From positions 1 through 64,000 of the IMG/VR virus record IMGVR_UViG_3300037440_000315: 64,000 nt of DNA; one strand, 5' to 3'. The position numbers and the translations under genes were made by a program. The notes under the pieces are model-generated. The model saw only the letters and a list, made by a program, of their open reading frames with translations, searched no databases and had not been told where the DNA came from. The stretch comes from a virus. Taxonomy: Duplodnaviria; Caudoviricetes. Shown in pieces: positions 22,138 through 63,885 of the stretch (its first letter is position 1; the number at the start of each line of letters is the position of its first letter).

Positions 22138-22452
22138 CTAAACCCCCGTCACACGTTTGGTAATGCCGCCTGATGGGGCGGAGCCAATTCGCTCCGTGAC
22201 GTCAATGGCGGGTTCGGCCGCAAAACCTGCCGTCACGGTCCTCCAACTATTGCCCCAACTGTTCCCCCATGAACCGTTCCATGGATCTGAAATATTGTCG
22301 GCAACGGCGTCGAAGTAATCCACGCGCTTGGAGCTTCCGTCGGCAATCAGGCCGGATACTCGCGCGGTGACATCGATCGTAACGGCGGCGGTGATGCGTT
22401 TGCTGATGTCTTCCGCGACCGTCCCGCTGACACGCTTGGTGACCGTCGTCAT
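22138..22452 (-). CDS. Putative virion protein with (T/S)xR(V/I) and WGNS repeats
   Basis: TKRV-like repeats, WNGSWGNSWGNSW; coupled to the upstream gene. Confidence 0.6.
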   Translation of the reverse strand: MTTVTKRVSGTVAEDISKRITAAVTIDVTARVSGLIADGSSKRVDYFDAVADNISDPWNGSWGNSWGNSWRTVTAGFAAEPAIDVTERIGSAPSGGITKRVTGV

Positions 22453-23864
22453 GCCGGGCCCCACGGCGTCCCGATTCCAGTATCGCCAGTCCCGCCGACT
22501 GTCACATCATTGACCGCCTGTATATTTACATCAGCGAAGCCAGCCACCGTGAATGTCAGGCTGTCGGTCTTGGCCTTGATGGCGGTGATGTCAGCCGATG
22601 TAACCGCGTATGACACATAGATCTGATCAGTGTTAAGCACTGGCGATGTCTGGCCTGTGCAATGCAACCTGATGTAAACCTTGCCAAGTTCGGCAACGGA
22701 TGTCCCAACGAACCTTGTGAAAAGCGGGCAGTTGTGCGTAATATTTACCGTACCTGACTGACCGGCGATCGTGGCCATCAACTCCCATGCGCCGCTCACA
22801 TGGTTCCATGCCGAAATGGTGGCAGTGTCATTGTTGCCGGTGAGGTATCCCTTCCATACGCACAGTACTGGCGCTGTGCCTGCACCGATGAGGAACTGAT
22901 AGACGATATCGATCGCATTCCCGGAATGCGTAATGGTGTGGTAACTGAGATCCTCGGCTGATGTATTGGCAAAGGTGCCTGTTTGCGATCCGATAAGTGT
23001 CGTGCCGCTGGTAACGCCGGAAATGCCGCCCGCAGTGTTGTCGGTTTCCGCGTCGATACTGAGCGCAGATCCGGTTGACGATCCGATACCTCCGATGTCA
23101 TCGATCAAATCAACATTATTGCCGGCGAGAGTGGCGCCGCTACCGAAGTCCGTTGGCGTGCCTATCGTGTCCGTATCGACAAGAATACGGTCAATCGTCT
23201 CGCTCAGACCCGTGTCAAGACGGGCAATTGCCTGCTGAACGCCAGTATCGAATGACCAACCTGTCAGCGTACGGGCGTCCTTGGCCCAGACTGCTGCTGC
23301 GATGGCGCCTGTGTCACGGAGTGACAGGAGAGCGCGGATACCGGTGTCGTAATCCCCGAGCGTGGCGCGAAGTCCGGTGTCCAAATCAGCAATGACGTTG
23401 CGCAATCCGGTGTCTACATCGCCTTGAATTTTGGTGAGGCGGTCATTAACGCCGGTATCGTTGAAGGCGACGACATTGGCGCGGGGCTCGCCGATCTCCC
23501 ATGTCCCAAGCCAGAATCGAACCGTTCGCCCGTCAACCGTTATGCTGTCGACGAATGCCTGATAGGACGATCCCACGGCATAAAAAGATGGGTCGTCAGC
23601 CGTGTTGAAAAGCTGTATCCTGACCCTATGCAAACCTACCCGGTCGCCGACCTGACCAGTGTCGCTGATCAACGAATACCCGCTATCGGTCGCCCTGACG
23701 GTCGCCGCGCCGTCTTTCAGAACCTCAATATCAGAGACCGCAAGGGTTCCGCCAATTCCGATTGATGCGCCGCTATCGTTGTACGTCCCGAAGGGAAATA
23801 TAAGGCTATCACCGGGCGAGGCAGCCGTTAAGCTTCCCGGATTTCGTTTTCCAAAATATAGCAT
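22449..23864 (-). CDS. Putative fibre/appendage protein with DTG hendecad repeats
   Basis: 9 DTG plus 2 DSG; 11-residue periodic helical stalk; IKAKTDSLTF..DVNI..VN C-terminal motif. Confidence 0.75.
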   Translation of the reverse strand: MLYFGKRNPGSLTAASPGDSLIFPFGTYNDSGASIGIGGTLAVSDIEVLKDGAATVRATDSGYSLISDTGQVGDRVGLHRVRIQLFNTADDPSFYAVGSSYQAFVDSITVDGRTVRFWLGTWEIGEPRANVVAFNDTGVNDRLTKIQGDVDTGLRNVIADLDTGLRATLGDYDTGIRALLSLRDTGAIAAAVWAKDARTLTGWSFDTGVQQAIARLDTGLSETIDRILVDTDTIGTPTDFGSGATLAGNNVDLIDDIGGIGSSTGSALSIDAETDNTAGGISGVTSGTTLIGSQTGTFANTSAEDLSYHTITHSGNAIDIVYQFLIGAGTAPVLCVWKGYLTGNNDTATISAWNHVSGAWELMATIAGQSGTVNITHNCPLFTRFVGTSVAELGKVYIRLHCTGQTSPVLNTDQIYVSYAVTSADITAIKAKTDSLTFTVAGFADVNIQAVNDVTVGGTGDTGIGTPWGPA

Positions 23865-23888
23865 TTATCGCTCGGTTGGTTTCCCAAT

Positions 23889-23914
23889 AAAAAAGCCCCG
23901 GAGAAGGGGGGCTT
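23889..23914 (-). terminator. Rho-independent terminator
   Basis: AAGCCCC..GGGGCTTTTTT on the minus strand; near copy of the 21199 hairpin. Confidence 0.6.
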
Positions 23915-23941
23915 GGTGTAACTGAGGATTTTTAGAGGCGG

Positions 23942-24097: not shown

Positions 24098-24101
24098 CTC
24101 T

Positions 24102-24332: not shown

Positions 24333-24360
24333 ACTACCCTCAATCCGTCTTCTCGAAGCT

Positions 24361-26137: not shown

Positions 26138-26143
26138 AACTTG

Positions 26144-26482: not shown

Positions 26483-29400
26483 CTATTGCAGCGGCGCGCC
26501 TTCACCGATCGAGAAGTCCCGACGATAGAGATCGGAGATGATCGCCTTCTGACCGTCTTCAAGAATGCGCTCCCGCGCGACGGGCCAGCCTTTCACGACA
26601 TCATTATAAGACGGAAGCTTCTTGCCCTTGATCCGGTCCACCAGTTCCTTGTGAACGTCCGGCGCCGCGGCTTCCAGTTCATCAAAGACCGTATCGACCC
26701 GGAGCGGCTTTTTCTGTTCCCAGCCCCGCACTTTCAATGCGATCAGCGCGTTGCGCGCCTCGCGCATGGAGATGTCGGAAAGAAGATCGGCGACGGTGCG
26801 CATCTGTTGCGGCGTCAGTTCGATCTGCTTGCCCTTGCCGCCTTTGTAGAGCCGGTTGAGGTTGATTTCCTTCTTCATGCCGCCGGTGATGGTGACAAGC
26901 TCTTGCGCCCGCTCCATTGGATGCAGGCGGCGATATTTCGAGCGATTGCCGCTATTGCCAGCCTTGAGGAGGGCATAGGCGCGTTCTTCGTCCGGCAGCC
27001 GGTCAAGCAATTCCTGCGCACCCATGACATCGCGCACCTTGTCGACGAGATGCTTGTATCCGTTCGCCGCTTGAACGAACGTGCCGTTCTCCATCGACAT
27101 CATGTCCCAGAACTGGCGAACGGACGTTGATCCGCGCTTTGGATCGGTCGTGAACCGGCGGATGAAGAAATAGTCCTGCACAGCCGGATCGGCAACCGGC
27201 CCCGTCGGCAATCCGAATGCACCGTCGGTTACCTTCCCGAGCGCGGGCATGAACTGATCGGATGCGTTCACGAATTCACGGCCGTAGGATGCACCGAACC
27301 CGGTGATGAAATGATCGACATAAGCCGGTGAAACTCCGGCCTGCTTGCCGAACCATTTCCCGAACTCCGACGCATAGGCGTTGAACTGCAATTCCGGCGG
27401 CAGGCTTTTCAGGAACGGGCCGACGATCGGGCGCCCGGAAAAGAAGCTGTGATCCGTGATCAGCTCAGTCGTTACAGCAACGCCTGGAGCAGAATGCGGC
27501 GGAACGGTGATTTCATAAAGCCCGTCGATGAAACGTTCGATCGATGTGGGGTCATCCCGATAGGTATAATCGAACGTGCGCTCTACAAGGTTGGAGAAGA
27601 ATGCCAACTCGAACGGCTTCGGGATGCGCACCCATTCACCGTTAACGCGGATCAGCCAGTGCGTCGCCTTGACGTAATCGCTGATTTCTTCGTATTCTTC
27701 GTCATCTTTGTAGAGCAAACTGAGCCCGAGGCCAATCATGCCGAGTGCAACCATATAGCCCCAGACCTGCGCCGCCTGCTTCATGTTGCCTTGCTCGACA
27801 ATGCTGAGAGGCTGACCGGTGCGGGACTTGATGTACGGGCTGATCGCCGTGCGCAAAACCCTGTCGGCATCGACCTTGCCGGTGAGCCCGCGGATGCCAC
27901 GATCCAGGCCCTGCAATGCTGCGTTGAAAAAGGGGATGAGGCGTCGTGCAGAAAGCATTCTTGACCCGCGCCGGCCAAAATCGATATAGTCGCGAGCGAT
28001 GAAAGCAGCCTCGACGGCGGATTCCCAATCGGTCAAACCGTCTGTCTTGGATCTGTCGAACGCCTTCTGGAATACACCAAGGCGCGTGCCAGTTTCGGCG
28101 AATTCCGTCATGCGCCAGAAATCGCGGGTGAATGGATTGAGCGTGAACCTGATGCCCTTGCGGCGAAGCTGAAGGATTTCGCGTTTGATCCGGCTTTCAT
28201 GCTGGGCCGCAACGTTCGCACCGCCCATGATGCCGCCGACGCGGGAGTAGATGCGCGATACATCGCTCAGCGTCAGATCGTTATAGATACCGCGGGCGCC
28301 GTCATAGAAGGGAACGAAGTCTCGCGTCAGCACCCATGCCGACATTTGGTCTCTCAGGAAATTAGCGCCTATGAAATCAGCGGATGCTGTCACACCGATC
28401 CGGAGCGCCGTTGACGGCAGGGACAAAAGATTGACCCACCACTCCGTTGCCTCCCGGTTCAGACCCGTGATGGCATGCAGCATATCGTGGCCGAACTTGC
28501 CGTCAGCCAGGCGAAGCGGAATGCGTTTGCCCCCTTCCCACAGGTAGATGATGGCTTCGCCTTTTTCCGACACTTCCCCGGCGCGCCAGATCTGCGCGAC
28601 CGCATTGCCGCCAAGCTGATCGTCTACAGCCTGCAACATGATCTGCATGTCGGCCGGATCGATACCGGCAGCGCGCGATGCAGACTTTATCGCCTCCTGA
28701 ATATTGGCTTGCGACGCCTTCATTTCGTGCGAGGGAATGCGTTCGGCGAACTTGCCGCCAACCGGCCCGGCGGCGCGGGCGAGCGCGTCAAGCGCTCTGA
28801 TCGCATCGTTGCGCGCGATGATCATCGCCGTCTCGTAGCTGTCCTTGGCAATTGATTCCAGCGGATTGATCACATCGCGCTGCGAGCCGCGGAACCGGCT
28901 GATGATCGAGTATTTGTCTTTCCGAGCCGCAGACCGTCCTTCGACGCCGCCGCGATCGCTCATATCGCGCATTACGGGCACGTAATCCTGCCGGCTGATC
29001 AGTTCATCGTAAAGCTCCGGGGTGATCAGCCCGGCATCCCGCTTCTTGCGCAGCATGTTGTTCAGATATTCGTAGACCTGTTGCGCGCCTTGAGTAAAGC
29101 CGGGATATTTGCCTTCGAAATCCTTGATCGCCTGCTGGTGATCGGCAAGGCTGAACTTGTCCGGCGGCGCGGAGAGGTCGCCATTCTGGAACCGGCCCCA
29201 TTCCTGCACCATGCGGCGGGAGGTCAGATAAGCACCGAAGTCGGTTGAGACTTCTTCGTTCCACTGAGTTTTATCGAGACCGCCGAATGCTGTTGCGACA
29301 GCCTCTCGCAGCCCCGGCCCTTGCGGCGTGATGCTCTTGTAATCGTGAACCCCGTGCAGCAAATCCATGTGTCCGGCCGCATAGCCATCACGCGCAAGTC

Positions 29401-32400
29401 GCAGCAGCTTATAGGCGTTGTTGGTCGCCTTGACATCAATCTTGTCGCGGACGTTCGCCGGGAAACTCTGCTTTGCGATTTCCAGCAGACCGTCAACCGC
29501 CATGCGGATCGGGTGCAGATCGTCGAAGACGGCCGTGTAGGCGCGATCGATCCAATTGTGGAAGGTGTTGCGAAGTCCCTCTTCCTTGAATTCGGTCACG
29601 ATTTCCTTGACGCTTCCCGGCTGGATCGTGGTAACGATGGAAGACGCGACCGCGCCGCCGGATGGCGCATTGATCCATTGCTGATAACCGTCACGAATGG
29701 ATTGCAGGCTTGCCAGTAAGTCGGGATCTTGCGCATCGAGGAACTCCTCGAATTCCTGTTCGAAGCCCGGAGCCGCCCGCGTGCTTGCCGCCGGATTGGT
29801 GACATAGCGGCGGAACCATTCCGCAAAGCCCTCAGAGAGCGCGTCAGGGCCGGGGGAAGCCAGCGGGGTTAGTTCGGCTGCATGGGTCAGCTTGATGGCG
29901 TCCAAGTCGGCCTTGAAGCGGTTTTCGAGCGCATGACCGCCTTCATGGGCAAGCGTGTCGATCTCGTTCGAGACGCGGAGCCGGATGACGCCGGTCTCCA
30001 TTGAGGTCTGACCGCGAACATCCTGACCCGCCATGCTGGCGCGGCGCTTCAATCCGGGGTCGAGACGGCCTTGTCGCACGACGAGCCCGAGCGCCTTGTT
30101 GAATGCGCCGACGAGATCGGCCAAGGATTGATCCGGACGTTCAGTCCCAGCCTTCGGCTGACGAACGGGACTGTCGGCAATGCGGCCAGCCGTCGCCTGA
30201 ATGGCGCGCGTACCGGTAGCCACCTCCGGCGCAAACTCCGGAAACGCCTCATTGAACCGTGCCTTGAACTCTCCTTCATCGATCCGGGTGAAAACATCAT
30301 CCGATATCTGGAAGCCATCGCCTCGCATGAAGCTGGAGACGCGGGCGATGAAATCCTTGATCCTCTGGAATACCGCGGCGATGGTTCCGGTGAACTGTTT
30401 CTTGCCGAGGTGGAATTCGCTATATTGTTCGGCGATGGCTTCCTTGATGAGGAGATCGTTCATCTCCGTCTCACTCATGCCGCCCTTGTAAACGGCCTCG
30501 TAAGCCTGCCGGACGCCGGTTGTCTCCACCCAGCCATTACGCCTTGCCGCCGTCTTGAACGTGTTCCATTCCTTCTCGGTGAACATGCCCATTGCCTTGA
30601 AGAATTCAACGGCTTCATGGCGGAGAACCCGGACGGCTTCCTGAACTGTGGTGACGCCTTTTGCTTTTGCCTCGGCTTCCACTGCGTTCATGCCTATGGA
30701 GATAAGCATGTTGTAGGGATCTGTCTGGCCTAGAGCTTCGGGTTGATCCTGACGACGCATGGCGTTGACGATAGATGGATCGGTCGGGTCGAAGGTTCCT
30801 CTGTTGCCTATGGCCGATTTGATCTGATTGGGCTCGAATGCAAGATAAATCGTCGAAGGCTGCCCTTCAACCGTATCGATCGCGTTGTTCAGGATAACGC
30901 CGTCGTGGCCACCTCGCGCGGCTTCAACGAGCGCATTGCGAACTTTTCCCATGTTGCTGGGGATTGCCAGGCCTTCAAAGTCCACGACCACAGGATTTTG
31001 CAGCGACAGATAAACCGGCATTATCTGTCCGGGCGGTAACTCCCGGCTCGGGATGTCAGTGAAGTCTTCAGCCAGTCGAGGGCTGTCTGTGAAATACAGC
31101 GCACCCATCGAGAAGCGATGCGCCTTCTTTGGATCGAATGCCTTGAAATCTGCCTGCGTGCCGTGATAAACGACTTTCGGCCGCCCGCCTTCATCGACGA
31201 CCTTGCTCTCACTGAACCAGCGCTTGAACTCTGGCGTTTCTGTTGCGGAGCCGGAGCGCAAAGCAAACATCTGATCGACAACGCCCTGCCGTTCTTCAGC
31301 AGAGACAGGCTCGCCGTTCTTTTTCGTGATCTTGACGAGGGAGTCGTCGAAAATTACGATGTTGCGGGTGCCGTCGCCGGTGTCGCGGGAGCCTTGATCC
31401 AGATAGCGGATTCCGGGAATGCCCGCTTCGCGGAGTACCTCCATGACACCGGAATCGGATGCCGTTTCATCGGCAATCTTACTGACGGGCATATCATCTG
31501 GCAAGGACACGACCTTCCAGTCTGACCGTTTGGCGACCAAATCTTCAGCAACTTTTCGACTATAAATGGGGCTAGCCAATTTACCATTAGACAGCCTGAT
31601 ATTTACAAGATTTTCTAATGCGGCTCTTACTTTTACGCTCTGCTCGCTTAGCGGCAGATCCCAATCCAGCAACTGCTCTGGCTCTACGTCGATCTCGACT
31701 TCGTAGAGGCCGCCGGAACGTGGGTCGACAGTGACCTCGCCGCTTTTGACAAGCTGATGAAGCTGCGCGTGCTGGTCGGAGTATTTGCGATTGCTCCATG
31801 TCATATCCAGGAATTCGGAGAGCGTGGCGCGATCAGCACCAACATTGTTCACATATTCCTGCCATTGAGTGCGGGCGAATGCCTGCATTTCCGGCTCGAC
31901 AGTGTCGAAAAATCTTAAGCTTTCGGCATCGACCTTCCCTAGTTTGAGCTGGTACGCCTTCGCAACATTTGGCTCTTCGGCAAAATACAAGCCGTGCCCG
32001 AACGCCTGCGCGCCTTCTCCCGTTCCGATCCGGTCCATTGAGAACCTGTCGAAATCATGGGGAGAGCCGTGGAACGCGCGAAGCGCGAACATCTGGTCTA
32101 CGGCTTGCTGGCGCTCAGCCGCCTTAACAGGCTTGCCGTTCTTTTTCGTGATCTTCAGGATTGAATCATCGAAAATTACATAGTTCTCTGCACCAGAATC
32201 TCCGATGAATCGAACACCGGAAACGCCGATCTCGCGCAATGCAGCGCTGGCACGGTCGGCCCCGCCAAGCGTTGCGGCGAGCGAGCGGTAAGCGTCCGCG
32301 AAGTATCGCTCAGCTATGCCCTTGTCATTGAAGAATGCTTGCACATCCTCTGATTGCTCAGATAGCTTTGCGTCCCAGTCCGCTAATTGCTCGCGCTCGG

Positions 32401-44692: not shown

Positions 44693-44962
44693 TTACGGCT
44701 GGCCAGTATCGAACCGGACCGTGCCCTGCGTGTCGCCAGTATCCTGCGCCGTGATGAAATAGCCATTCCACACCACGTCATTGGTCTGATCGACAACCCT
44801 TATCGGATCACCTGGGACAGCCCCGTAATCCGTGGCATTGGTGAAATAGCCGACCGCCTGATAGGCTCCGACTGATTCACCGCCAGTATCGATGTACTGG
44901 AACTGTCTCGCAGAAACGAGGCCCTGTGAGACGAGGGAAAGTCTTCCGGGATCATAACCCAT
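44693..44962 (-). CDS. Small virion protein (capsid-decoration candidate); 3 DTG
   Basis: Directly after the capsid gene, strong GGAGG RBS, GYF.NA..G..GD.I.V motif. Confidence 0.7.
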   Translation of the reverse strand: MGYDPGRLSLVSQGLVSARQFQYIDTGGESVGAYQAVGYFTNATDYGAVPGDPIRVVDQTNDVVWNGYFITAQDTGDTQGTVRFDTGQP

Positions 44963-53536: not shown

Positions 53537-54041
53537 TGATGAGCTTCCAATCCTGTTCGAGGCGGTGGATGTCAGCTTCGTTCATGCCGTTGGTGATGAA
53601 GTCACGCCCCCATGACGGAGCCCACACATATTGTGGTTGTCTCGTCACCGGGACAACATCAATCCCAAGAGCGAGAGCGCAAGCAAGCCGGTGAGCGCCT
53701 CCGAGAAGCTCTCCATCAGGATCAATCGGAATGGCATGAGCGAGATCAAATCCCTTATTCACCATTGATACTAGCAGATTTCGGCAGTCTGCAACATACT
53801 GGTCGCTGCCGGATTTACTGTCCATCCCCAGATTGATCTTTGCGTTGGCGGCCTTGCGAGCGGATAGATGCCAGCGGTAAATCCGTTCGCTGTCAGGATC
53901 ATCCCCGGTGCACAAATGACGAAAGAACCGCCACTTCACTGCAATGTCGGCTCTACGCAGCGTGACGAGCTGTCTCGTCGGCAAATGTAAGTAGCTGCTT
54001 GCGGGATTCGTTTGGCGACTGGTGTTCAACATCGATCTCAA
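53526..54041 (-). CDS. ParB/Srx-like domain protein
   Basis: SM...GFD...IPID..GELLGGAHRLACALALG...VPV. Confidence 0.65.
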   Translation of the reverse strand: MRSMLNTSRQTNPASSYLHLPTRQLVTLRRADIAVKWRFFRHLCTGDDPDSERIYRWHLSARKAANAKINLGMDSKSGSDQYVADCRNLLVSMVNKGFDLAHAIPIDPDGELLGGAHRLACALALGIDVVPVTRQPQYVWAPSWGRDFITNGMNEADIHRLEQDWKLINGQ

Positions 54042-54588
54042 TCATCGGGACGCCGCGAGCGGCGAGAACTTCCTTGGCGTATTCGATGGCCGGGATCATG
54101 GGGCCGATCTGAAAACAGCGATTTTCATGCTGAGTGGCCGCAACTTTCTCCCGCGCCTCGTTGCGCTCGAATATCGTCGTCAGGCTGGCTTTCAGGAACG
54201 CAACGCCGAGCGAGACCGGCATAAGCTCGTAGTAACGTTTCGTCTCTCTCAGATCGGCTCCCATGTCTACAAGACGCCAGCCGAAGCCCAAGCCGCGCTG
54301 GACAAAACCTGTCTGGATATAAGGCTTTGTGTCGTTGATCCGCGTGACGGTCGCCATTTTCTTCAGTGAGCGTTCGTTCATACGGATGACGGCTTGCAGC
54401 GTAGGCTGTCCGAAGCAGTTCTTGTGATCTTTCACCAACGAAACGAGCCGGTTGACTTCAGCGAGGAAGTCCTTCCATTCTTCCGGTGGCGGCAGGCCGT
54501 CCCAATCAGGCCATCGGTGATGATGGAAGTGGTCGCAGAGTGTGGACTTACCAGTGCCCGGTGGCGCGGCAACATCAAGCCAGTTCAC
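53953..54588 (-). CDS. P-loop kinase-like protein
   Basis: APPGTGKST (Walker A); L.AS....ER lid motif. Confidence 0.7.
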   Translation of the reverse strand: MNWLDVAAPPGTGKSTLCDHFHHHRWPDWDGLPPPEEWKDFLAEVNRLVSLVKDHKNCFGQPTLQAVIRMNERSLKKMATVTRINDTKPYIQTGFVQRGLGFGWRLVDMGADLRETKRYYELMPVSLGVAFLKASLTTIFERNEAREKVAATQHENRCFQIGPMIPAIEYAKEVLAARGVPMIEIDVEHQSPNESRKQLLTFADETARHAA

Positions 54589-54834
54589 CTAGCACTCCCA
54601 CTCGACAGACATCGCCTCAGTACGCTTGAGGTCATCTCTTTCCTGGTAACATTTCAGAAAAACGATTTTACCGTCCGGAGAGACCTTGTTCCGCAGGTTT
54701 TCCATTACCTTACGCATCATCAACGGAAGTTCGTCAAACGAGCCAACAGGGCCTGCGCCGCCGTTGTGTTTCCAAGCATCCAGCGTGCAACTTACTTTCC
54801 GACGAACTTTCTGGTCCATGTCACGCAGCCTCAT
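54589..54834 (-). CDS. Hypothetical protein
   Basis: Operon ORF. Confidence 0.5.
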   Translation of the reverse strand: MRLRDMDQKVRRKVSCTLDAWKHNGGAGPVGSFDELPLMMRKVMENLRNKVSPDGKIVFLKCYQERDDLKRTEAMSVEWEC

Positions 54835-55573
54835 ACGGGTCCATCACCCAAGCATCGTCAGACTTAGGCTGTGACACCTCGGCGGACTTGCGCTTGAAGA
54901 GAAATATGCGATAGGCTGGATCCTCGACCGGAGCTTCTGCCGGGCCGGACGCGCCGCACTCGCTGCGTTCGAGACGCCATTCCGGTGACATCACGGCTTC
55001 GAATAGTGCGAGGGGACGCGCGAATTGATGGTTGCAGACACGTGCCGTCAGAATGATGCGGTCGCGAGCAATGCGCTGCATTTCCTTGAACATTTGCTGG
55101 CATTCTTCCGGGGACAGACCGCGAGTAATGCGAATGCATAGCGCAGCATCGACCGATTTATCCGGTATGCCTGACGACAGGAGGTCGGCTTTCGTGAAGG
55201 CAATCTGAGGAACGTCTTCTGTCCTGCCGTCATGCGTATCGAATTTCAGAACCGGCGTTCTGCCGTCAGTTTTCGCTGACGCCTTACGGATCATGTCTTC
55301 GCTGATGTCAAGTCCGCGGTAGACAAGGTGATGATCGAGGCAGTATTTGAGGAACCGGCCGGAGCCGCAAGGCGCATCAAGAACCCACGATCCTGGCGGC
55401 AGATCGACCAGCATGTTCTCAATGACTTGTTGCTCGACTGTCCATTTGGCTTGTCCGGCCCTCTTATCATCGTAAAGATCAGCGACTTTGCCCTGATATT
55501 TGGTGCGCCAATCCGTGCCGCCGCCTTGCTGTGGCTGCTGGACTGGAGGGAGATACTGCATCTCGCCGATCAT
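54821..55573 (-). CDS. Class I SAM-dependent methyltransferase
   Basis: VLDAPCGSGR, GLDISEDM, ADL, D. Confidence 0.85.
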   Translation of the reverse strand: MIGEMQYLPPVQQPQQGGGTDWRTKYQGKVADLYDDKRAGQAKWTVEQQVIENMLVDLPPGSWVLDAPCGSGRFLKYCLDHHLVYRGLDISEDMIRKASAKTDGRTPVLKFDTHDGRTEDVPQIAFTKADLLSSGIPDKSVDAALCIRITRGLSPEECQQMFKEMQRIARDRIILTARVCNHQFARPLALFEAVMSPEWRLERSECGASGPAEAPVEDPAYRIFLFKRKSAEVSQPKSDDAWVMDPYEAA

Positions 55574-56235
55574 GCTGCTTTCCTGCGAATGGGTTTAAAC
55601 AAAGCTTCCTCCAATGGCCACCCGTTGTTCGCCATACGTTGTCGAACAATTTTGTATGGAACATTAGTTTCAGATCGCTCGACTGCTTCAGACAGCGGCA
55701 TCTTGTGTCCACTGTATGTTACGATCCTGCAGGATCGCCTATTCAAAGCTTGCTCTTTGGGCGTTGCCCAGCGGCAATTGCCCGGCTCGTAATTACCGTT
55801 GTTGCTCTCACGGTCGATCGTATGCCCAGTTGGGGGATGCCCCATATCCTCAAGAAAGTTCTCATATTTGTTCCAGCGCTCACAAACTGTGATCCCACGA
55901 CCACCATAGTCTGGATAATTGGAACTGTTTTCGTTCCGGCACCGTTGGTGCATAGCAGCCCAAACACGATATGCCCTTGATCTTCCTTTCTTCACTGAAG
56001 CTTGGCCGTGTTTCGTATGCTGCTCCGAAGAAAATTCGCGTCTATAACAACCACAACTTGTGCTTTTCCCAAGCTTTAACGGCTGACTTGTCTTGATGGT
56101 TTCCTGGCCACAATCACAGCGGCAAAGGTATTGCATCGACCTTTGGCCGCTCGGGTGATACTTAAAGCCTACTTCTCGCAAAACGAGCAACCGCCCGAAG
56201 CGATCCCCAACTATATCGATACGGCATCCGCTCAT
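55570..56235 (-). CDS. HNH homing endonuclease
   Basis: GDRFGRL, CRCDCG, SCGC, YGGRGITVCERW, TIDR..N.GNYEPGNCRWAT..EQ..N. Confidence 0.88.
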   Translation of the reverse strand: MSGCRIDIVGDRFGRLLVLREVGFKYHPSGQRSMQYLCRCDCGQETIKTSQPLKLGKSTSCGCYRREFSSEQHTKHGQASVKKGRSRAYRVWAAMHQRCRNENSSNYPDYGGRGITVCERWNKYENFLEDMGHPPTGHTIDRESNNGNYEPGNCRWATPKEQALNRRSCRIVTYSGHKMPLSEAVERSETNVPYKIVRQRMANNGWPLEEALFKPIRRKAA

Positions 56236-56981
56236 TTGTAAAATTCTTCCACCCAATTATGGGATTGACGCACTTCACCTTGGTCGGGCATTCTGTCGCC
56301 CGGAAACACCACGATCTTCGCATTCTCCGGAAGCTCTGATGGCACGCCACCGTCTGGCTTGCCGTCAAACAGCCTGCCAGCACCGTAGATGCCGTGTTCT
56401 GCCGTCCAGTGCGGCTCATCCCATCCCAGCCTTTCGCTGATCCACGCCTGTTCCATGCCGCCGAAACGGCGATTGGCGAGGCCGGGCGTGACGGCAGGGT
56501 CGAACTCGGTGTATAGGTAGCTGTGTACGCCTGCGTCGAATAGCTGGATCGAGCCCTGATAGAATGCGCGTCGACCGCTCGGCTGAAAATTCGGATTGCG
56601 GTACATGACATTCGGCTCATCGCGCCCGAATATGTCATCGACATTGCCGGTGATGACGATATCAAGATCGAGCAAGGCGATGCGTCGGCCGAGTATCCCG
56701 CCGATGTCCGGACGCCGCGCCATCAGTTTTACCGCACATGTTCCGGGGACATGTTTCGATTTGTCCAAAGGAACGCAGCGGATGCCTTCCTTGGCGAGCG
56801 TTTCGGCAGCTTCGCGGCTGTCGGTGATGACGACGAATTCGAAATCAAGTGACGTATTTCGCTTCAGCATGTTCCGAAGGATGATCGGATGCTGAGTTGT
56901 GAACTTGTAGCTGCGGCGGCGGGCCGGATCTTGCCACAGAAACGCAGCGAACGTGATAAAATCGTTTTTCATTGGCATCAA
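56232..56981 (-). CDS. GT-A-type glycosyltransferase (paralog 3)
   Basis: FVVITD, RIALLDLDIVITGNVD (DxD), RNP, EQ.W.S, LPENAKIV.FPG. Confidence 0.8.
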   Translation of the reverse strand: MMPMKNDFITFAAFLWQDPARRRSYKFTTQHPIILRNMLKRNTSLDFEFVVITDSREAAETLAKEGIRCVPLDKSKHVPGTCAVKLMARRPDIGGILGRRIALLDLDIVITGNVDDIFGRDEPNVMYRNPNFQPSGRRAFYQGSIQLFDAGVHSYLYTEFDPAVTPGLANRRFGGMEQAWISERLGWDEPHWTAEHGIYGAGRLFDGKPDGGVPSELPENAKIVVFPGDRMPDQGEVRQSHNWVEEFYK

Positions 56982-57390: not shown

Positions 57391-58203
57391 CTAAGTCCAC
57401 GTACCAAATCTGCGTTTCTGATCTGGATGGCTGTGGAGCGAGACCCCCTGCCATTGCTTTCTTGGGTAATACCTCTCAAGCCATGGGTTGGCTTCTCGTA
57501 CAACGGGATTTTCCGGCTTGCCTTCACTACCAGGCGTGGTAACGAGCTTGGCATTGTCCGGCAGATCGCCCCAGATGCCTGTCTCGGGCTCGCCTGGGCG
57601 GGCTATGCGGTAGATGCCGTGGGAGGCGTCGAAGTAAGGCATGTGCGGACCCAGATAGCTCGACAGCCAAGTCTGATCATCCTTCAATACAGGGTGAGCA
57701 GGTTGCTCGGCAACATGTGCAACATATTCGGTCCATGTCCAATCAGCGCTTCCGCACCTATGCAGCACGAACGATCCATTGTAATATGGCCTCTGCGGGA
57801 CAGACGGATTATCCCACGGCACCCGCGCCGGATTGCGCCAGAGCACGATAGGCTCATCTCGCATCACGACGTCATCGAAATTGCGGATGACGAGCGTGTC
57901 GAGATCCATCTGAAACACGCGGTCCACGCCGAAAATCTCACGGCCATTCGGATGGAACGTCATCAGCCGGCAAACGCAGTGCCCGGCATCCATCGGGATC
58001 GTGTCGTCGATCGGGATTGCCCGTATCTCTGTATCGCCGTCAAACGCTTCAGGACGGTCCGTAACGCAGATGAAGCTGTGCGGCACCGTCAGATTGGCTT
58101 TCACCGCTCTCGCAAGCTTCCTGACGTCTTCAGGCGTATAGGGAGCAGCAAGCTTGCTGTTGGCGTCGGGACTCCACAGGTACGTGATAACCGCAAGGCT
58201 CAC
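57391..58203 (-). CDS. GT-A-type glycosyltransferase (paralog 2)
   Basis: FICVTD, CRLMTF, FQMDLDTLV, LWRNP.RVP, DDQ.WLS, LPDNAK. Confidence 0.8.
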   Translation of the reverse strand: MSLAVITYLWSPDANSKLAAPYTPEDVRKLARAVKANLTVPHSFICVTDRPEAFDGDTEIRAIPIDDTIPMDAGHCVCRLMTFHPNGREIFGVDRVFQMDLDTLVIRNFDDVVMRDEPIVLWRNPARVPWDNPSVPQRPYYNGSFVLHRCGSADWTWTEYVAHVAEQPAHPVLKDDQTWLSSYLGPHMPYFDASHGIYRIARPGEPETGIWGDLPDNAKLVTTPGSEGKPENPVVREANPWLERYYPRKQWQGVSLHSHPDQKRRFGTWT

Positions 58204-59060
58204 TGCCGATTCTCCCCGATCAGGATTTCATTCTCATCCATAAGGATGGTGAAACCTGCCTGTTCAAGGATGGTTCGGCATTCAGGACCGGGACATTTGC
58301 CGTTACGCTCGGGACCAACGCGGATGCTGACATAGCGGGTGCGTTTCAGGGTCTCGGTGGCGCCGAGGAGCACTTCAGGTTCTGCGCCTTCGGCATCGCC
58401 GACGATCAAAGAGATCAGCGAGTCTCGATCGTAAGGCGCAAGCATATCGATGCGGCGTGATGCAACGCTGATTACGTCATCAGACGCATTGATCGCCGAC
58501 GTATCGCCCTTCTCGGTTGCGATATACAAATCAATGTTGCCGTCTTCACGCCACGCAACGACTGGAGCAATATCGATTCTGCGCCCCTGTGCATTTGCAC
58601 TCAGCGCCGGTAAAACATTAGGATCAGGCTCGATCGCCAACACACTTGCGCCCTTGCGATTGAGCGCGAGCGCAACTTCACCGATATTGGCTCCAAAATT
58701 GATGACGCGATCGCCGTCCGAAACTTCGATCAGCCCGTTGCCGAGATAGTCCCGCAGAAGAACGTTGAATCGGTGGTCTACGCCGCGGTAAAGATAATGG
58801 CAAATGCGCCAGTTGTTCGCGCAAGCGATCCGGTCCTTGCCGTCATGGAACCAGATGATGCCGGCTGCCGGATCTTGCCCGATGCAATATACGCCTTCGT
58901 CTTTAGCCAGCGTTTCATTGCGCCAATGGACGCGGTGAACGACTTTGACGCCGGTCTCCGGGAACCAGCCGTCATTGCGGAAAGGCTGCGGTGACGTTTC
59001 GTGCAGGATGCTGACCGTCAGATGACGGGTTTCCGGTTTATACACTAGCAATGGCTGCAT
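58200..59060 (-). CDS. FkbM-family methyltransferase (paralog 2)
   Basis: VINFGANIGE, AIEPD, RRID, IVGDAEGAEPEVL.GA. Confidence 0.85.
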   Translation of the reverse strand: MQPLLVYKPETRHLTVSILHETSPQPFRNDGWFPETGVKVVHRVHWRNETLAKDEGVYCIGQDPAAGIIWFHDGKDRIACANNWRICHYLYRGVDHRFNVLLRDYLGNGLIEVSDGDRVINFGANIGEVALALNRKGASVLAIEPDPNVLPALSANAQGRRIDIAPVVAWREDGNIDLYIATEKGDTSAINASDDVISVASRRIDMLAPYDRDSLISLIVGDAEGAEPEVLLGATETLKRTRYVSIRVGPERNGKCPGPECRTILEQAGFTILMDENEILIGENRQ

Positions 59061-59803
59061 CAGCTATTCCTCGACTTGGCGATCAGGGTGCAGAACCCTT
59101 GATCGCCACGATGAATGATGTCGAAACCAGCCGCGTGCAAGATGATCTCACAAGCTTCCATAGTCCGCTCACCATCACGTTCGGCACTGGCGCAAAGGCT
59201 GACATAATCGGTGATCTTGAGTGTTTCCGCAGCGCCTTCCAGAACTTCTGGCTCCGCGCCCTCGGCATCGCCGACGATCAGGCGAACATGGTCAATTTCA
59301 TACTCACGGGCGAGCGTATCGATCCGGCGCGCCGGGAAAGTCATGCGACCCTCTATGCGCTTTTGAGCGGGCTGAAATACCGACGTATCGCCGCTTGCCG
59401 TCGCCAGATACATTTCGAGTTCGCCGTCCTGTTTCCAGGCTGCGACTGGCTCGACCCAAATATTGCGCCCATCAGCGTTCGCCTTCAGAGCCGGGAGAAC
59501 ATGACTGTCCGGCTCAATCGCGAGAACCTTGGCCCCCCGCCATTCAAGGCAGACCGCGACTTCGCCGATGTTAGCGCCGATGTTGATGACGCAATCGTCA
59601 GGACTTATCGAAACCCTGCCCTGAAGGTAGCGATAAGTCAGCCCTACAAGGCGGTGGCGAATGCCATGGCGAAAGAACCGTTGACCACGCTCCGGTACGG
59701 CGACAGCCATGCGGTTGACGCCATCCTCAAACCAGAAAACCGATCCTTCGAACCAGAAAACCGGTCCGTCGCTTGCGTCAAGATGTGGCTGTAATTGCTG
59801 CAT
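59060..59803 (-). CDS. FkbM-family methyltransferase (paralog 1)
   Basis: VINIGANIGE, AIEPD, RRIDT, IVGDAEGAEPEVLEGA. Confidence 0.85.
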   Translation of the reverse strand: MQQLQPHLDASDGPVFWFEGSVFWFEDGVNRMAVAVPERGQRFFRHGIRHRLVGLTYRYLQGRVSISPDDCVINIGANIGEVAVCLEWRGAKVLAIEPDSHVLPALKANADGRNIWVEPVAAWKQDGELEMYLATASGDTSVFQPAQKRIEGRMTFPARRIDTLAREYEIDHVRLIVGDAEGAEPEVLEGAAETLKITDYVSLCASAERDGERTMEACEIILHAAGFDIIHRGDQGFCTLIAKSRNS

Positions 59804-60338
59804 CGGCCGTTAAACCTGCATTATAACGCTTTCTAAACTCAGAGCATGCTGCTTTAATATCGCCTTGAGCGCCTATGCGTTCGCAAAACTCGGGGAACTG
59901 CCGCACGGCTGCATCGATATCAATGCACATGTGCTCTTTGTCGCGCAGGTAATGTTTGATATTTTCATTCATCACGCCAATCATATCCAGCATTGTTAAG
60001 TCCAGGTCAGCTCTGGGCTTCCCAAGCATGCCGACCCAGAATCCTCCCATGCCCTGCCCATGTCGATCAAACTTGTTGACATAGCTGCCAGCGACCAGTT
60101 CTGGACTGCGCGTCAAATGCACATAGAACGCTTTCTTGCCGTACAGATTCTCCAGTGGTCCAAGATACCACGTGAGACGAAAGTCAACCTCAATATGCCG
60201 ATCCGGAAAAGCTAACCTTTCGTCGGCAAAATGCCGATATTTGCTCTCATGCCCGGTCGTATAATTCGACAGATGCTCACAAGCTTTCGAGAACGTCACT
60301 GAGCCGCACCGTCCGGTGCAAAGGACAAAAATGTTCAA
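59778..60338 (-). CDS. Sulfotransferase-like protein
   Basis: IFVLCTGRCGS (5'-PSB-like loop) and YVHLTR....AGSY (3'-PB-like); TTG start with GGAGG RBS. Confidence 0.6.
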   Translation of the reverse strand: MNIFVLCTGRCGSVTFSKACEHLSNYTTGHESKYRHFADERLAFPDRHIEVDFRLTWYLGPLENLYGKKAFYVHLTRSPELVAGSYVNKFDRHGQGMGGFWVGMLGKPRADLDLTMLDMIGVMNENIKHYLRDKEHMCIDIDAAVRQFPEFCERIGAQGDIKAACSEFRKRYNAGLTADAAITATS

Positions 60339-61108
60339 ACTACCTCCGATGCCGGTGCGCCAAGCCTTTCGCCGTCGCGACCCGTATGCGGAAAATGCTC
60401 CCTTATCCAAGGATTTCTCTGTTGAATCTCAGCCTGCCATGCCTTGCGCTGGTCGCCGGGCGTGAAGACGATCTTGGCGTTCTCAGGCAAGTCGCCGTCG
60501 ACACCGCTGCCTGGAACGTAAGGAATGGCCAGACGATAAACGCCGTCTCGCTCGCCATCCCAGTACGGCATGTCGGGTCCGAGCGCGTCGGAGATCAGCC
60601 ACTGGTCATCCTTGGCCTGTTTCGGCGTCACGTCAGGATCGAATTCCGTATAGAAATGCTCCAGCGTCCCGGTCTTGTAGAGGAACATCGACAGATTGTA
60701 CCAGCATGGGCCGCCCGGCTGATTGTAGGGCACGCGCCGGGGATTGCGCCAGAGCACCATATCCTCGTCGCGATCGACGATGGAATCCATGTTGCGGACG
60801 ATCAGCATGTCGATGTCCACCTGCAGGATGCGCTCGCCGAACAGATCCTTTGCCTGCGGGCTGAAGGTCATCAGGCGGCAATAGCAGCGACCGGGGATGT
60901 GCGTGGTCATGTCAAGTTCGACGGCGCGGATCTTCGGCTCGTTGGCAAACAAATCCGTCCGGTTTGTGATGCAGACGAATTCATGCGGGACAGTCAGATG
61001 CTTTTCGAACATCGCCTGCAGGATGCGTGCGTCGTCAAGACCATAGATGTATTTGTCGTTGTGCTTGCCGTTCGGCTCTTGCCAAGCGTAAGTGACTACG
61101 GATAACAT
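60335..61108 (-). CDS. GT-A-type glycosyltransferase (paralog 1)
   Basis: FVCITN, CRLMTF, LQVDIDMLIV, LWRNP.RVP, DDQW.IS, LPENAKIV..PG. Confidence 0.8.
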   Translation of the reverse strand: MLSVVTYAWQEPNGKHNDKYIYGLDDARILQAMFEKHLTVPHEFVCITNRTDLFANEPKIRAVELDMTTHIPGRCYCRLMTFSPQAKDLFGERILQVDIDMLIVRNMDSIVDRDEDMVLWRNPRRVPYNQPGGPCWYNLSMFLYKTGTLEHFYTEFDPDVTPKQAKDDQWLISDALGPDMPYWDGERDGVYRLAIPYVPGSGVDGDLPENAKIVFTPGDQRKAWQAEIQQRNPWIREHFPHTGRDGERLGAPASEVV

Positions 61109-61166
61109 GCGTCAGATTCCTTCGCTCATGATGACAACACTTGTTTGCAAAAGTTCGGCAGCAAAC

Positions 61167-62324
61167 TCAAGCGCATTCCCAGATTTCAGGCTGATTTTGC
61201 CCAACTATCTGCTTCTCGAAACAGGAAAGCGCGCGGGCGACCGCCTGATCCATGTTGTAATAGCTGTAGTCGGCGAGCCGCCCGGCAAAAATGACATCAG
61301 ACCGCCGCGCCGCCATCACTTCGTATTTCCGGAACACGCCGCGGTTTTCTTCCCGTGGAACCGGATAGTAAGGTTCGTTGACGCCAGGCCGATAGTCTTC
61401 CGGGTATTCAAAAACCTGCGTCGTAAAGTCGACGTCGTCCTGGCCGGTCAGCCAGCGGAATTCGGTCGATCGTGTGTACGGATGCATTGCGGCCGGCGTC
61501 GGGTAGTTCTCGACTGCGCTCCCTTGGACCGGCTTGTCCGACGGCCTGGATATGAACTCGAACCGGATGCTGCGATAAGGCAGCGCCCCGTGTTCATAGC
61601 CGAAAAATTCGTCGATCGGACCTGTGTAGATTATCCGCTCGAATTCTTCGCTTCCGTCGATTTCGCCGAAGCTTGCGCCTGTCTGGACTTCAATGAGCGG
61701 ATGATCCAGCATTCGCGCAAAGAGCGCCGCATAGCCATCGCGCGGCATGATCTGGAACCGGTCCTGAAAATACCGGTCATCTCGGGACAGATGCACCGGA
61801 ACCCTTGCCGAGACCGAGGCGTCAAGATCTTCCGGCCGGACGCCCCATTGTTTGACCGTATAGTGCAGGAAGACTTTTTCGTAGACGAGATCGGCAATCT
61901 GCCGGGTCTCCTGCGAAGATGACTCCCGCATCTTGAGGATCGGAACCTTGCTTTCAGCTCCGAATTCGCCGATGAGACATTCATTCAGATGCGGCGCCTG
62001 CTGGCCGAACACCATCTCCATCGACGTGAGATTGAACGGCAGCGGTACGAACTGGCCGTCGACCCAGCCCGTCACCCGGTGCTCGTAGGGCCGCCACTCG
62101 GCGAACTGGCTCAGATACTCAACGATCCTCGGCGAATTGGTATGGAAGATATGCGGTCCATAGCGATGGACGAGAACGCCATGCTCATCGTGATGGTCAT
62201 AGGCATTGCCGCCGGTGTGATCCCGCCGGTCGATGACCAGAACGCGCCGCCCGAGTTGAGACGCGATCCGCTCCGCTATCGTCGCGCCAGTGAAGCCAGC
62301 CCCGACAACCAGAAAGCGCCGCAT
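61167..62324 (-). CDS. glf: UDP-galactopyranose mutase
   Basis: VVGAGFTG (FAD), GGNAYD, HRYGPHIFHTN, YT.KQWG, YF.DRFQ.MP, EPYYP, GRLADYSYYNMDQ. Confidence 0.95.
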   Translation of the reverse strand: MRRFLVVGAGFTGATIAERIASQLGRRVLVIDRRDHTGGNAYDHHDEHGVLVHRYGPHIFHTNSPRIVEYLSQFAEWRPYEHRVTGWVDGQFVPLPFNLTSMEMVFGQQAPHLNECLIGEFGAESKVPILKMRESSSQETRQIADLVYEKVFLHYTVKQWGVRPEDLDASVSARVPVHLSRDDRYFQDRFQIMPRDGYAALFARMLDHPLIEVQTGASFGEIDGSEEFERIIYTGPIDEFFGYEHGALPYRSIRFEFISRPSDKPVQGSAVENYPTPAAMHPYTRSTEFRWLTGQDDVDFTTQVFEYPEDYRPGVNEPYYPVPREENRGVFRKYEVMAARRSDVIFAGRLADYSYYNMDQAVARALSCFEKQIVGQNQPEIWECA

Positions 62325-62338
62325 TCTTTCAGTCCCGA

Positions 62339-63016
62339 TCAGAACACTTCCGGATCGTCATGAAGCAGCATGCTTTCCGGCGCCACCTTGACCTTGATGC
62401 CGCGCCGGATCGCCTCTTCAAGAAAATACTGCGTCGATGGACGCTGCAACTGATACTCGTGTTTGTCGCCTCTTTGCAAGATGCCGTATAATGCAATCTC
62501 GGGGATACCCTGCTTCTCGCATTCCGTGATCGCGAGCGCCAGCATGAAGGCGATCGAGGATTTGAACTGCGAACGATGGAACTTGCCCGGCGTGAACTCG
62601 ATTTTGCCGTCCTTGCGGATGACCTTGCGACCGCGCATTTCTTCATCCGGGTACGGCACGGCAGTAGGAAACAGCGGCGTGCCGTTCTCCATCCGCATCC
62701 GCATCGCGATCAGATCGCGCATGTAGACGACGGGAATGTTTTTCAGCCAGTCGTAATAGGCGTATGGCAGGGTCTTATCGAATGCGGGCGTATGGCAGAC
62801 AAACCACCCGTCAGCCCGTGGGATGGCTTGTGCGTGCTCTGCATGGCCATAGGGTGAGTTGTCCGGGGAGCAGGCCCAGATCCGCCAGTCCTTGTTTGCG
62901 AACGGCGCTGTCTTGACAGTGACAGGATGGCTTCCGCATATGGCTATCCCCTGCACGGAAACGGCCGGGACGATTGTCTCGTCACCGGCCGGCAGATCGG
63001 TTACTTTTTGAAGCAT
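62339..63016 (-). CDS. Putative glycosyltransferase of MAF/GT29-like Rossmann fold
   Basis: IAICGS, IW.CS, SSIAFMLALAI...EIALYGI, EY..QR...Y.....RRGIKV pattern; fold assignment is inference. Confidence 0.45.
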   Translation of the reverse strand: MLQKVTDLPAGDETIVPAVSVQGIAICGSHPVTVKTAPFANKDWRIWACSPDNSPYGHAEHAQAIPRADGWFVCHTPAFDKTLPYAYYDWLKNIPVVYMRDLIAMRMRMENGTPLFPTAVPYPDEEMRGRKVIRKDGKIEFTPGKFHRSQFKSSIAFMLALAITECEKQGIPEIALYGILQRGDKHEYQLQRPSTQYFLEEAIRRGIKVKVAPESMLLHDDPEVF

Positions 63017-63030
63017 TACTATCCCTTGGC

Positions 63031-63885
63031 TTAATCGCCCGTGTCACGCGAGGCGGAAACATTGATCCAATCCAGATCAACATTCACCGCATTGGATTCG
63101 GATTTGAACGCAGCAACGACGGGAACCATTGCGCGAGCAGCCGGGACCGGATTGGAAAGCGAGCCCTTGAGAATACCGCCCTGGTAAAAATACGCTATAT
63201 CGCCATCTTCACCAGCGCCGGTGTCGCCGAAGACGATCTCCAGAACTTCGTAGACATTATCGGTCGGCGTAGCGCCAGCAACCGGCGTAGCGACGGTATC
63301 GGCGTTGACCGCCACGCCGCGCCATGCCGTCGAAGGCGAGCCAGCGCCGCCGGCGTACAGGAACCCAACCGCGCTGCTCGACAATGCAACCGGAACGCCG
63401 GCATCGTCACCAGTGTCATACATCGGCATCTGGCTCGCGCCTGTGTCGGCAAAGCCGGCGAACACATTGGCCCCGGTCAGATCATCGATCTTGATCCTTG
63501 CCGCAAAGCGAAGATTGCCCTGCTTGGCCTTCCACTGCGGGAACAGTCCGGTATTGATGAGCCCGTGGTTTAATGGAATCGGAGCCGAGTTAGCCACGAA
63601 AGCAAGCCGGAAGATGCCGTTCGTGCCCGCCGCGACTACGCCGCTGATATCGGCCGCGCCGGTGTCGTTCTCAGCGAAGTTCCAGCTATCATCGACGAGA
63701 TCGCCGAGGAAGTCGTCAAAGACCGCCGGGCGCGCCGGATTGCCGGGGAGAACGATGTTGCCGCCCTTGTTGCCGATCGATTTCTGGCCGCCGGCGACAA
63801 AGCCGCCCCTTGCCACCAGAGCGTTTTCGTTCGTATCATAAACATCCTGTCCGTGGATGCTATGGCGTTTTGTAAGTCTAGCCAT
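63031..63885 (-). CDS. Beta-rich putative virion protein; 5 DTG
   Basis: FDDFLGD N-terminal motif, beta-sandwich-like composition, ..VDLDWINV C-terminus; first visible gene of the modification cluster. Confidence 0.7.
   Translation of the reverse strand: MARLTKRHSIHGQDVYDTNENALVARGGFVAGGQKSIGNKGGNIVLPGNPARPAVFDDFLGDLVDDSWNFAENDTGAADISGVVAAGTNGIFRLAFVANSAPIPLNHGLINTGLFPQWKAKQGNLRFAARIKIDDLTGANVFAGFADTGASQMPMYDTGDDAGVPVALSSSAVGFLYAGGAGSPSTAWRGVAVNADTVATPVAGATPTDNVYEVLEIVFGDTGAGEDGDIAYFYQGGILKGSLSNPVPAARAMVPVVAAFKSESNAVNVDLDWINVSASRDTGD

Follow-up and report, generated by a model that had tools for sequence, protein, structure and literature searches.

An Asp-Thr-Gly tripeptide as a candidate sequon for a phage-written mark on the tail proteins of temperate podophages

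The stretch of DNA analysed here (the window, 64,000 nucleotides) comprises the first 64 kb of IMG/VR virus record IMGVR_UViG_3300037440_000315, which is complete at 100,870 bp, and its late genes encode five proteins in which the tripeptide Asp-Thr-Gly (DTG) is strongly enriched. We propose that DTG is a sequon for a modification made in trans, a proposal that is well supported, and that threonine O-glycosylation by conserved phage enzymes is the likeliest chemistry, which we hold with middling confidence. The proposal is founded on the statistics of the motif, its conservation across a clade, its gain by substitution, its depletion elsewhere in the proteome, the location of the sites in loops, the folds and families of the enzymes, and the co-distribution of enzymes and motif. 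A broader picture is offered more tentatively, namely a clade of temperate podophages with a strict D-T-G sequon for cytoplasmic O-glycosylation, read by a Maf-fold protein together with a DxD glycosyltransferase (GT), a P-loop protein and a methyltransferase, and with tailoring enzymes that can be swapped.

Results

DTG is concentrated in a few late proteins

The five DTG-rich proteins of the window are all encoded on the minus strand. The nozzle protein, or tail tubular B (tubB, gp12-like, 1131 amino acids; 40115-43510; PHROG 376, E 1e-117), holds 16 DTG and 3 Asp-Ser-Gly (DSG), and the fibre-like protein of 471 amino acids (22449-23864) holds 9 DTG and 2 DSG. No DSG is found in the three others, which are p284 at the head of an enzyme cluster (63031-63885; 5 DTG), the adaptor protein, or tail tubular A (tubA, gp11-like, 215 amino acids; 43517-44164; PHROG 394, E 7e-33; 3 DTG), and the 89-amino-acid post-capsid protein p89 (44693-44962; 3 DTG). 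The sum of 36 DTG compares with 1.9 expected from each protein's own composition, and the observed count was reached by 0 to 4 of 20,000 shuffles per protein. Every DTG and DSG count given by the initial annotation, a reading of the sequence made before this work, was reproduced for the proteins it named; its rough expectation of one or two copies agrees with the value of 1.9, and the comparison with shuffled controls that it had called for confirms the enrichment.

Neither DTG nor DSG occurs in the portal protein, the SLT protein or the major capsid protein (44976-45809, minus strand; PHROG 3437, E 4e-49). The giant internal (ejection) protein of 3446 amino acids (26483-36823, minus strand) has 1 DTG and 2 DSG. 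Its DTG count is close to chance (~1.0-1.2) and far below that of the exposed tail proteins; a giant internal protein of ~4325 amino acids is encoded by a relative, G008 (69885-82862). A sixth DTG-rich protein, of 144 amino acids with 5 DTG, is encoded just past the window (genome 65965-66399). Across the whole genome, 41 of the 42 DTG sit in these six proteins, where 2.1 would be expected, and the remaining ~136 proteins share a single DTG against 5.9 expected.

DTG is the most over-represented tripeptide genome-wide (42 observed vs 8.0 expected, P 2e-17), the next tripeptide reaching P 2e-5. The permuted controls DGT, TDG, GTD and others are near expectation, as are the near-equivalents DSG, NTG and ETG; DTA is found 8 times against 9.6 expected, and none of the other DT-x tripeptides tested is enriched in the genome. 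The nucleotide pattern GAYACNGG occurs at 62 sites in the genome, of which 42 are read in sense frame 0, a further 7 lie in the remaining sense frames and 11 are antisense, and the DTG codons differ at wobble positions. It follows that selection acts on the peptide, as had been argued initially from the varied codons, and a motif at the DNA level is ruled out. The aspartic-protease active site, in which DTG also occurs, is ruled out by the 16 copies in the nozzle protein and by the position of the sites in loops.

The trait marks a single clade

More than 130 nozzle homologues with 7-22 DTG form one clade, whose sisters have 0-2. The 120 closest homologues, which come from metagenomes and are 55-100% identical to the nozzle protein of the window, carry 10-22 DTG each. 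An exhaustive search clustered at 50% gave a bimodal distribution of representatives, 17 with at least 7 DTG and 133 with 2 or fewer. In the maximum-likelihood tree the DTG-rich nozzles are monophyletic (support 0.999) and their nearest sisters have 0 DTG, so that the trait arose once in the sampled tree.

The same division is visible in the other proteins. Fibre homologues in DTG-rich relatives contain 13-35 DTG, and one distant homologue on a DTG-poor contig contains 1 in 718 amino acids. The densest case is the fibre homologue of the complete genome G007 (G007:C1:1-2772), in which 35 DTG are found in 923 amino acids against 1.2 expected. Homologues of p284, a protein without any family or PDB match, hold 4-10 copies when the phage is DTG-rich, compared with 0-1 when it is DTG-poor.

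DTG is avoided outside its targets

The enrichment is accompanied by avoidance. The named non-target proteins, that is portal, terminase, scaffold, capsid, internal proteins and the enzymes themselves, contain 0 DTG in 44 DTG-rich loci vs ~18.7 expected; in 64 DTG-poor loci the same categories contain 23 DTG vs ~27 expected. The rest of the proteome follows this trend, with 7 DTG vs 22.1 expected (P 2e-4) in four complete DTG-rich genomes and 5 DTG vs 4.8 expected in a complete DTG-poor relative. One column of the capsid alignment is instructive: it reads DTG in 10 of 19 DTG-poor capsids, and NLG or TLG in all 14 DTG-rich capsids, the capsid of the window having NLG there. This pattern points to an apparent targeted loss of DTG from the most abundant virion protein, the capsid, as far as the alignment can tell. 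Enrichment and avoidance side by side in one proteome are to be expected if the motif has a promiscuous reader acting in trans, but not if it is a purely structural turn.

Sites were gained by substitution and lie in loops

At the first adaptor site, DTG-poor homologues have the triplet SLT or SLS where the rich clade has DTG, two members keeping the older state, and at the second site SPS, DAS or DTA stands in place of DTG. All 3 adaptor sites are kept in nearly all DTG-rich relatives. In the nozzle, DTG-poor homologues have other residues at the aligned loop positions where the rich clade has DTG. For both tail proteins, then, DTG-poor homologues lack DTG at aligned positions, a comparison of the kind that had been proposed at the outset. 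The alignment of the p89 family (A8) includes two DTG sites conserved in rich members, for which a DTG-poor homologue (L117) has STD and NANG. Gain of DTG by substitution is seen in at least five unrelated protein families (tubA, tubB, p89, p284 and fibre) within one clade. Ancestral repeats are ruled out as the source of DTG in tubA, tubB, p89 and p284, given that DTG-poor homologues align there with other residues.

Within the clade, DTG triplets are 56% conserved, vs 18-22% for other triplets, at ~57% overall identity. The sites also turn over, with gains, losses, one-residue shifts and exchanges of threonine and serine, often beside insertions or deletions. No extended sequon was found among the positions flanking DTG; there are mild preferences for small or polar residues at -1 and for hydrophobic or aromatic residues at -2, and proline and lysine are avoided upstream.

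The AlphaFold2 (AF2) model of the 1131-amino-acid protein (predicted local distance difference test, pLDDT, 86.4) matched 8ck1 (Foldseek E 1e-38) and T7 gp12 (6r21/7boy, E 2e-19 to 2e-16), and this predicted full-length fold, together with the sequence profile, identifies the protein as a podovirus nozzle, or tail tubular B. In the model, 15 of the 19 D[TS]G sites are fully in loops, compared with 31% of all triplets (P 2.5e-5), in line with the loop location that the initial annotation had anticipated, and most of the sites are short loops between beta strands. In the fibre, 6 of the 9 DTG sites head short helical repeats of 11 residues.

A cluster of candidate enzymes precedes the terminase genes

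The genes of the cluster described here lie on the minus strand. The protein p225 (62339-63016) has a fold of the Maf / CstII (GT42/GT29) type and is a candidate protein O-glycosyltransferase. Its AF2 model (pLDDT 91.6) matched CstII with Foldseek (E 2e-4), and VIA-align gave Maf 5mu5 as the best superposition (Z 10.1, root-mean-square deviation 3.5, 161 aligned residues), followed by Cst-I 2p56 (Z 9.0) and mammalian sialyltransferases (Z 6.7-7.8). The 52 members of the p225 family gave no Pfam match, PF01973 included; an Atlas lead points to PF01973 (score 0.83).

Three proteins with an Asp-x-Asp (DxD) motif are true paralogues of one family, which we call A4: p257 (GTa257; 60335-61108; PHROG 1962, E 2e-5), p249 (GTb249; 56232-56981; PHROG 1962 'glycosyltransferase', E 5e-8) and p270 (57391-58203), the third paralogue, which hhalign joins to A4 with 100% probability (E 8e-79). 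D-x-D is invariant in the 21 members of A4 and in p270, and a similarity to glycogenin (GT8) at this motif is weak (E ~0.6). A P-loop kinase-like protein, p211 (53953-54588), has a Walker A sequence GPPGxGKS, a weak match to Pfam AAA_18 and Atlas neighbours of the AAA_33, AAA_18 and SKI types. Its PDB matches are weak and comprise adenylate and UMP-CMP kinases, and it also has a faint HprK-related match. Profile searches of the PDB with p225, the GT family and p211 gave E >0.1 throughout, and p270 and p210 had no match in them; NCBIfam likewise contributed nothing useful.

The neighbouring genes encode a class I S-adenosylmethionine (SAM) methyltransferase, MT250 (54821-55573; Pfam Methyltransf_25, E 1.5e-11), and two FkbM-family methyltransferases (58200-59060 and 59060-59803; Pfam Methyltransf_21, E 1.5e-9 and 7e-12), whose scores of 46.3 and 38.7 bits, against a gathering cut-off of 22.7, place them in that family. 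A UDP-galactopyranose mutase (Glf; 61167-62324) matches PF03275 GLF over positions 1-203 of 203 (E 4.5e-63) and also has an N-terminal FAD/NAD-binding domain (PF13450, E 4e-19). The glf gene, the FkbM methyltransferases and the three DxD paralogues listed by the initial annotation are hence real, by Pfam for the former and by hhalign for the DxD family. Its sulfotransferase-like gene is the P-loop kinase-like p211, and no sulfotransferase family was matched among the cluster proteins in Pfam or NCBIfam. No clear membrane segment is apparent in any protein of the cluster, p158 being borderline.

A conserved core and swappable tailoring genes accompany DTG

The gene context was drawn from IMG/VR loci centred on portal and terminase, which extend over the nozzle as well as the stretch upstream of the terminase, and from whole records. 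In DTG-rich loci that reach upstream, one to three GTs of family A4 are always present. The p211 gene is present in nearly every DTG-rich locus covering its position and in all DTG-rich genomes fetched whole, MT250 in most DTG-rich loci, and p225 where the locus extends far enough. The GT, MT250 and p211 are absent from all DTG-poor relatives examined. The co-occurrence of DTG with an enzyme set, which it had been suggested to look for, is thus found for the GT-like proteins and p211, usually with MT250 and p225, and has a single origin. The smallest complete cluster, in G007, consists of p225, one GT, MT250 and p211.

By comparison, no related locus has a homologue of glf, of either FkbM gene, of p210 or of p158. 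Four DTG-rich genomes that are complete or nearly so (G006-G009) lack glf, and their clusters instead hold flavin adenine dinucleotide (FAD) oxidoreductases, a short-chain dehydrogenase/reductase (SDR) and a different FkbM (an unrelated one in G006). The pattern of the clusters is that of a conserved core with swappable sugar-tailoring genes. As glf and the FkbM genes are accessory to this genome, a methylated glycan containing galactofuranose (Galf) cannot be the general explanation; the Galf-containing, methylated and possibly sulfated coat of the initial annotation would be at best a feature of this phage, and its sulfate is unsupported. HNH homing-endonuclease genes are found within the enzyme clusters (window 55570-56256; G006 15798-16658, 18826-19164 and 21599-22276) and may drive the shuffling of tailoring genes.

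Phage, late operon and probable hosts

The late operon runs on the minus strand from p284 through the enzyme cluster to the small and large terminase genes, then portal, scaffold and capsid, p89, the gp11-like adaptor and the gp12-like nozzle, the internal proteins including the giant one of 3446 amino acids, and finally the fibre. The genome also encodes a CI-like HTH-S24 repressor, RecT, ERF and two tyrosine integrases (window 2988-3740, 7854-8783 and 12543-13619; genome 89471-90211 and 98586-99842), and because of these genes the phage, a podophage with a T7-like module, is judged temperate. An N6/N4 DNA methylase is encoded outside the window (genome 81107-83023), its domain being matched in two separate stretches of an open reading frame of 638 amino acids. 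Two other IMG/VR loci, L008 and L012, have a large terminase 72-74% identical to that of the window, but identity drops to 33-37% in the portal, the nozzle and the remaining structural genes, which hold no DTG; these values point to an apparent exchange of the terminase gene between lineages.

No cultured relative was found in the phage collection searched. A scan of genome contigs gave only distant relatives (portal, L160-L163), in alpha- and betaproteobacterial metagenome-assembled genomes (MAGs), and a GT homologue, P0404, lies on an NCBI contig of 79.8 kb that bears the label Aquamicrobium sp. On these weak leads, the Aquamicrobium contig and the portal relatives in MAGs, proteobacterial hosts are probable.

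Discussion

We propose that DTG is an acceptor motif which would be read in the host cytoplasm by phage-encoded late enzymes that O-glycosylate its threonine, serine being tolerated at some sites. The targets would be the tail exterior, that is the adaptor, nozzle and fibre, and a few small proteins, probably located on the virion. The core of the writer may consist of one to three DxD GT-A-like paralogues, p211, usually the SAM methyltransferase, and p225. Variable tailoring enzymes would then diversify the glycan between phages, with Glf and two FkbM methyltransferases in this genome, and FAD oxidoreductases, an SDR and another FkbM in relatives. The depletion of DTG can be understood in the same terms, the motif being selected against in capsid, portal, terminase and non-structural proteins because the writer would act on any accessible DTG. 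Soluble cytoplasmic enzymes fit this proposal, given the lack of membrane segments in the cluster proteins, with p158 as the borderline case. A glycan becomes more plausible because the variable neighbouring genes are tailoring enzymes of the sugar type, and O-glycosylation in particular because p225, according to its predicted model, shares its fold with Maf, which O-glycosylates Ser/Thr of flagellin in the cytoplasm. We infer that the mark is covalent and that it is a glycan, and likewise which enzyme would start it and whether it would serve tail shielding or adhesion. With regard to the D-(T/S)-G glycan acceptor originally put forward, a motif read by a trans-acting factor stands, on the evidence of five families and of the depletion, the Galf and sulfate components do not, and the glycan itself is about evenly balanced.

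Several observations weigh against this proposal. The glycosyltransferase assignment of family A4 is weak at the level of sequence, with no Pfam match in its 21 members, no NCBIfam match and no significant sequence match in the PDB. The fold of p225 is shared with the pyrophosphokinases MptE and TPK (Z 6-8.6), and apart from the accessory Glf no nonulosonate or other donor pathway is encoded. Homologues of the GT, SAM methyltransferase and p211 triad (38-44% identity) are found in the late terminase-portal regions of unrelated phage fragments (loci L177-L184 and records G001-G005, 15-57% complete), and these fragments are not enriched in DTG or in any other tripeptide; the triad looks like a mobile late-region module, if such similarities are a guide. 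In DTG-poor phages, among them the complete genome G010, a longer form of the p225 family is found as well. As the triad and p225 families each occur without DTG enrichment, neither of them alone predicts DTG. The co-occurrence of GT and DTG is confounded by shared descent, owing to the single origin of the trait, and is not independent evidence. Finally, D-T-G is a favourable sequence for beta-hairpin turns, and since it also recurs with the 11-residue period of the fibre, a structural contribution is possible. The protein p225 was not found on the contigs with the triad only, which are 15-57% complete, and it is a lead that DTG enrichment is seen only where p225 and the triad coexist.

The targets of the cluster could lie elsewhere. 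It could modify the envelope glycans of the host, as in lysogenic conversion, or the phage DNA, while DTG would be read non-covalently, for example by an assembly chaperone or a decoration protein. The phage is indeed temperate (integrases, CI-like repressor, RecT, ERF), glycosylation of DNA bases by phage GTs is well documented (10.1101/2023.12.21.572611; PMC13326640), and the GT-methyltransferase-P-loop triad travels between unrelated phages without DTG. However, the cluster lies within the late operon of structural and packaging genes and is transcribed in the same orientation, away from the integrase and repressor genes; it includes no flippase, polymerase or GtrA-type membrane protein; and three residues are too short for specific non-covalent binding. 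We consider this explanation unlikely. The same applies to its DNA variant, the glycosylation of bases, for only an N6/N4 methylase was found, and with neither a C5-cytosine methyltransferase nor a thymidylate-synthase-like hydroxymethylase in the genome, a source of 5-hydroxymethylcytosine (5hmC) or 5-hydroxymethyluracil (5hmU) is absent.

It can also be hypothesised that DTG is a sequon for a covalent mark other than a glycan, either phosphorylation of threonine or a phospho-linked group made by p211, or a methyl-type mark from MT250, the GT-like genes serving another target. The kinase-like p211 is, of the core genes, the most widely found in DTG-rich loci, adjoins the terminase genes and has the faint HprK-related match; the interchange of threonine and serine would suit any hydroxyl-directed mark, and depletion elsewhere would suit any promiscuous writer. 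Yet neighbours of the AAA_33, AAA_18 and SKI types are mostly kinases of small molecules or nucleotides, homologues of p211 occur in other phages without DTG enrichment, and the co-conserved GT-like, Maf-fold and sugar-tailoring genes are explained more simply by a glycan, which makes such a mark distinctly improbable.

Equally doubtful, in our estimation, is the idea that DTG is an unmodified structural device of this lineage, either a favoured turn of the hairpin or helix-cap type or a turn that binds ions in the trimeric or hexameric parts of the tail, and that the cluster is unrelated to it. The short loops between beta strands in which most sites lie, the regular 11-residue repeats headed by DTG in the fibre, and the positional conservation of many sites would all be accommodated. 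Such a device nevertheless leaves unexplained the near-exclusive use of D-T-G when DSG, NTG, ETG and permuted forms are at expectation, the parallel substitution to DTG in five unrelated folds of one clade, the turnover of sites, and the fact that this clade alone has lost the motif from its capsid, portal, terminase and non-structural proteins.

A sequon read by phage enzymes would have several implications. Enrichment plus depletion is a signature readable from sequence that predicts modified proteins and residues in hundreds of uncultured phages. If threonine O-glycosylation at DTG is correct, the system would be the first in which a bacteriophage encodes protein glycosylation directed by a sequon, with a portable three-residue glyco-tag, and it would offer a minimal, soluble and cytoplasmic O-glycosylation tag for glyco-engineering. 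It would further imply that phages adapt their entire proteome to a modification enzyme, and that glycan coats on tails have to be added to the variables governing host recognition and phage stability. Should the mark be something other than a glycan, a tripeptide signal that is on or off across a whole clade and is avoided in the rest of the proteome is still unusual and calls for a reader acting in trans.

Comparison with known systems

To our knowledge, phage virion glycosylation has so far been documented mainly in mycobacteriophages, and we know of no short sequon described for it; our literature searches found no DTG sequon in phages. In the mycobacteriophages Che8, Corndog and Myrna, virions are glycosylated by phage GTs encoded near the structural genes (PMC12363180, citing Freeman 2023). 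The present system is similar in the position of its GTs near structural genes, and the cytoplasmic virion O-glycosylation proposed here is reported to have been shown there. It differs in its targets, which in the mycobacteriophages are capsid and tail-tube proteins, whereas here the capsid is free of the motif and the adaptor, nozzle, fibre and small proteins carry it. It differs also in its strict three-residue motif, enriched in targets and depleted elsewhere, in enzymes that are unrelated by sequence as far as tested, and in hosts that are probably Proteobacteria.

The general O-glycosylation motif of Bacteroidota, D-(S/T)-(A/I/L/V/M/T) (PMC8550257), is likewise a three-residue motif in which an aspartate precedes a hydroxyl acceptor. 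Glycine is nevertheless excluded at its third residue, so that D-T-G falls outside the definition. In Bacteroidota a lipid-linked glycan is transferred en bloc in the periplasm to exported proteins, whereas the present phages encode no membrane transferase, the proteins concerned stay in the cytoplasm and, on weak leads, hosts other than Bacteroidota are likely. O-glycosylation by a Bacteroidota host is ruled out by the third residue, the periplasmic location and the proteobacterial host leads.

Phage GTs that glycosylate DNA (10.1101/2023.12.21.572611; PMC13326640) resemble the present cluster in being accompanied by tailoring enzymes, but they need 5hmC or 5hmU precursors from MT/TET or hydroxymethylase enzymes, and they predict no peptide motif.

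A closer parallel in fold is provided by Maf and the sialyltransferases of the CstII type (5mu5, 1ro7, 2p56), since the model of p225 superposes best on the catalytic domain of Maf and on Cst-I/CstII. Maf enzymes glycosylate serine and threonine residues of a folded structural protein in the cytoplasm, and we know of no sequon for them. Unlike Maf, p225 comprises only the core of ~200 amino acids without flanking domains, has no PF01973 match and is accompanied by no encoded nonulosonate pathway.

The chlorovirus PBCV-1 (PMC7019647) is a eukaryotic giant virus with N-linked glycans on its major capsid protein and unrelated enzymes, and yet it is comparable to what we propose here, its virion glycosylation being virus-encoded, cytoplasmic and independent of the endoplasmic reticulum, at atypical sequons and with methylated sugars.

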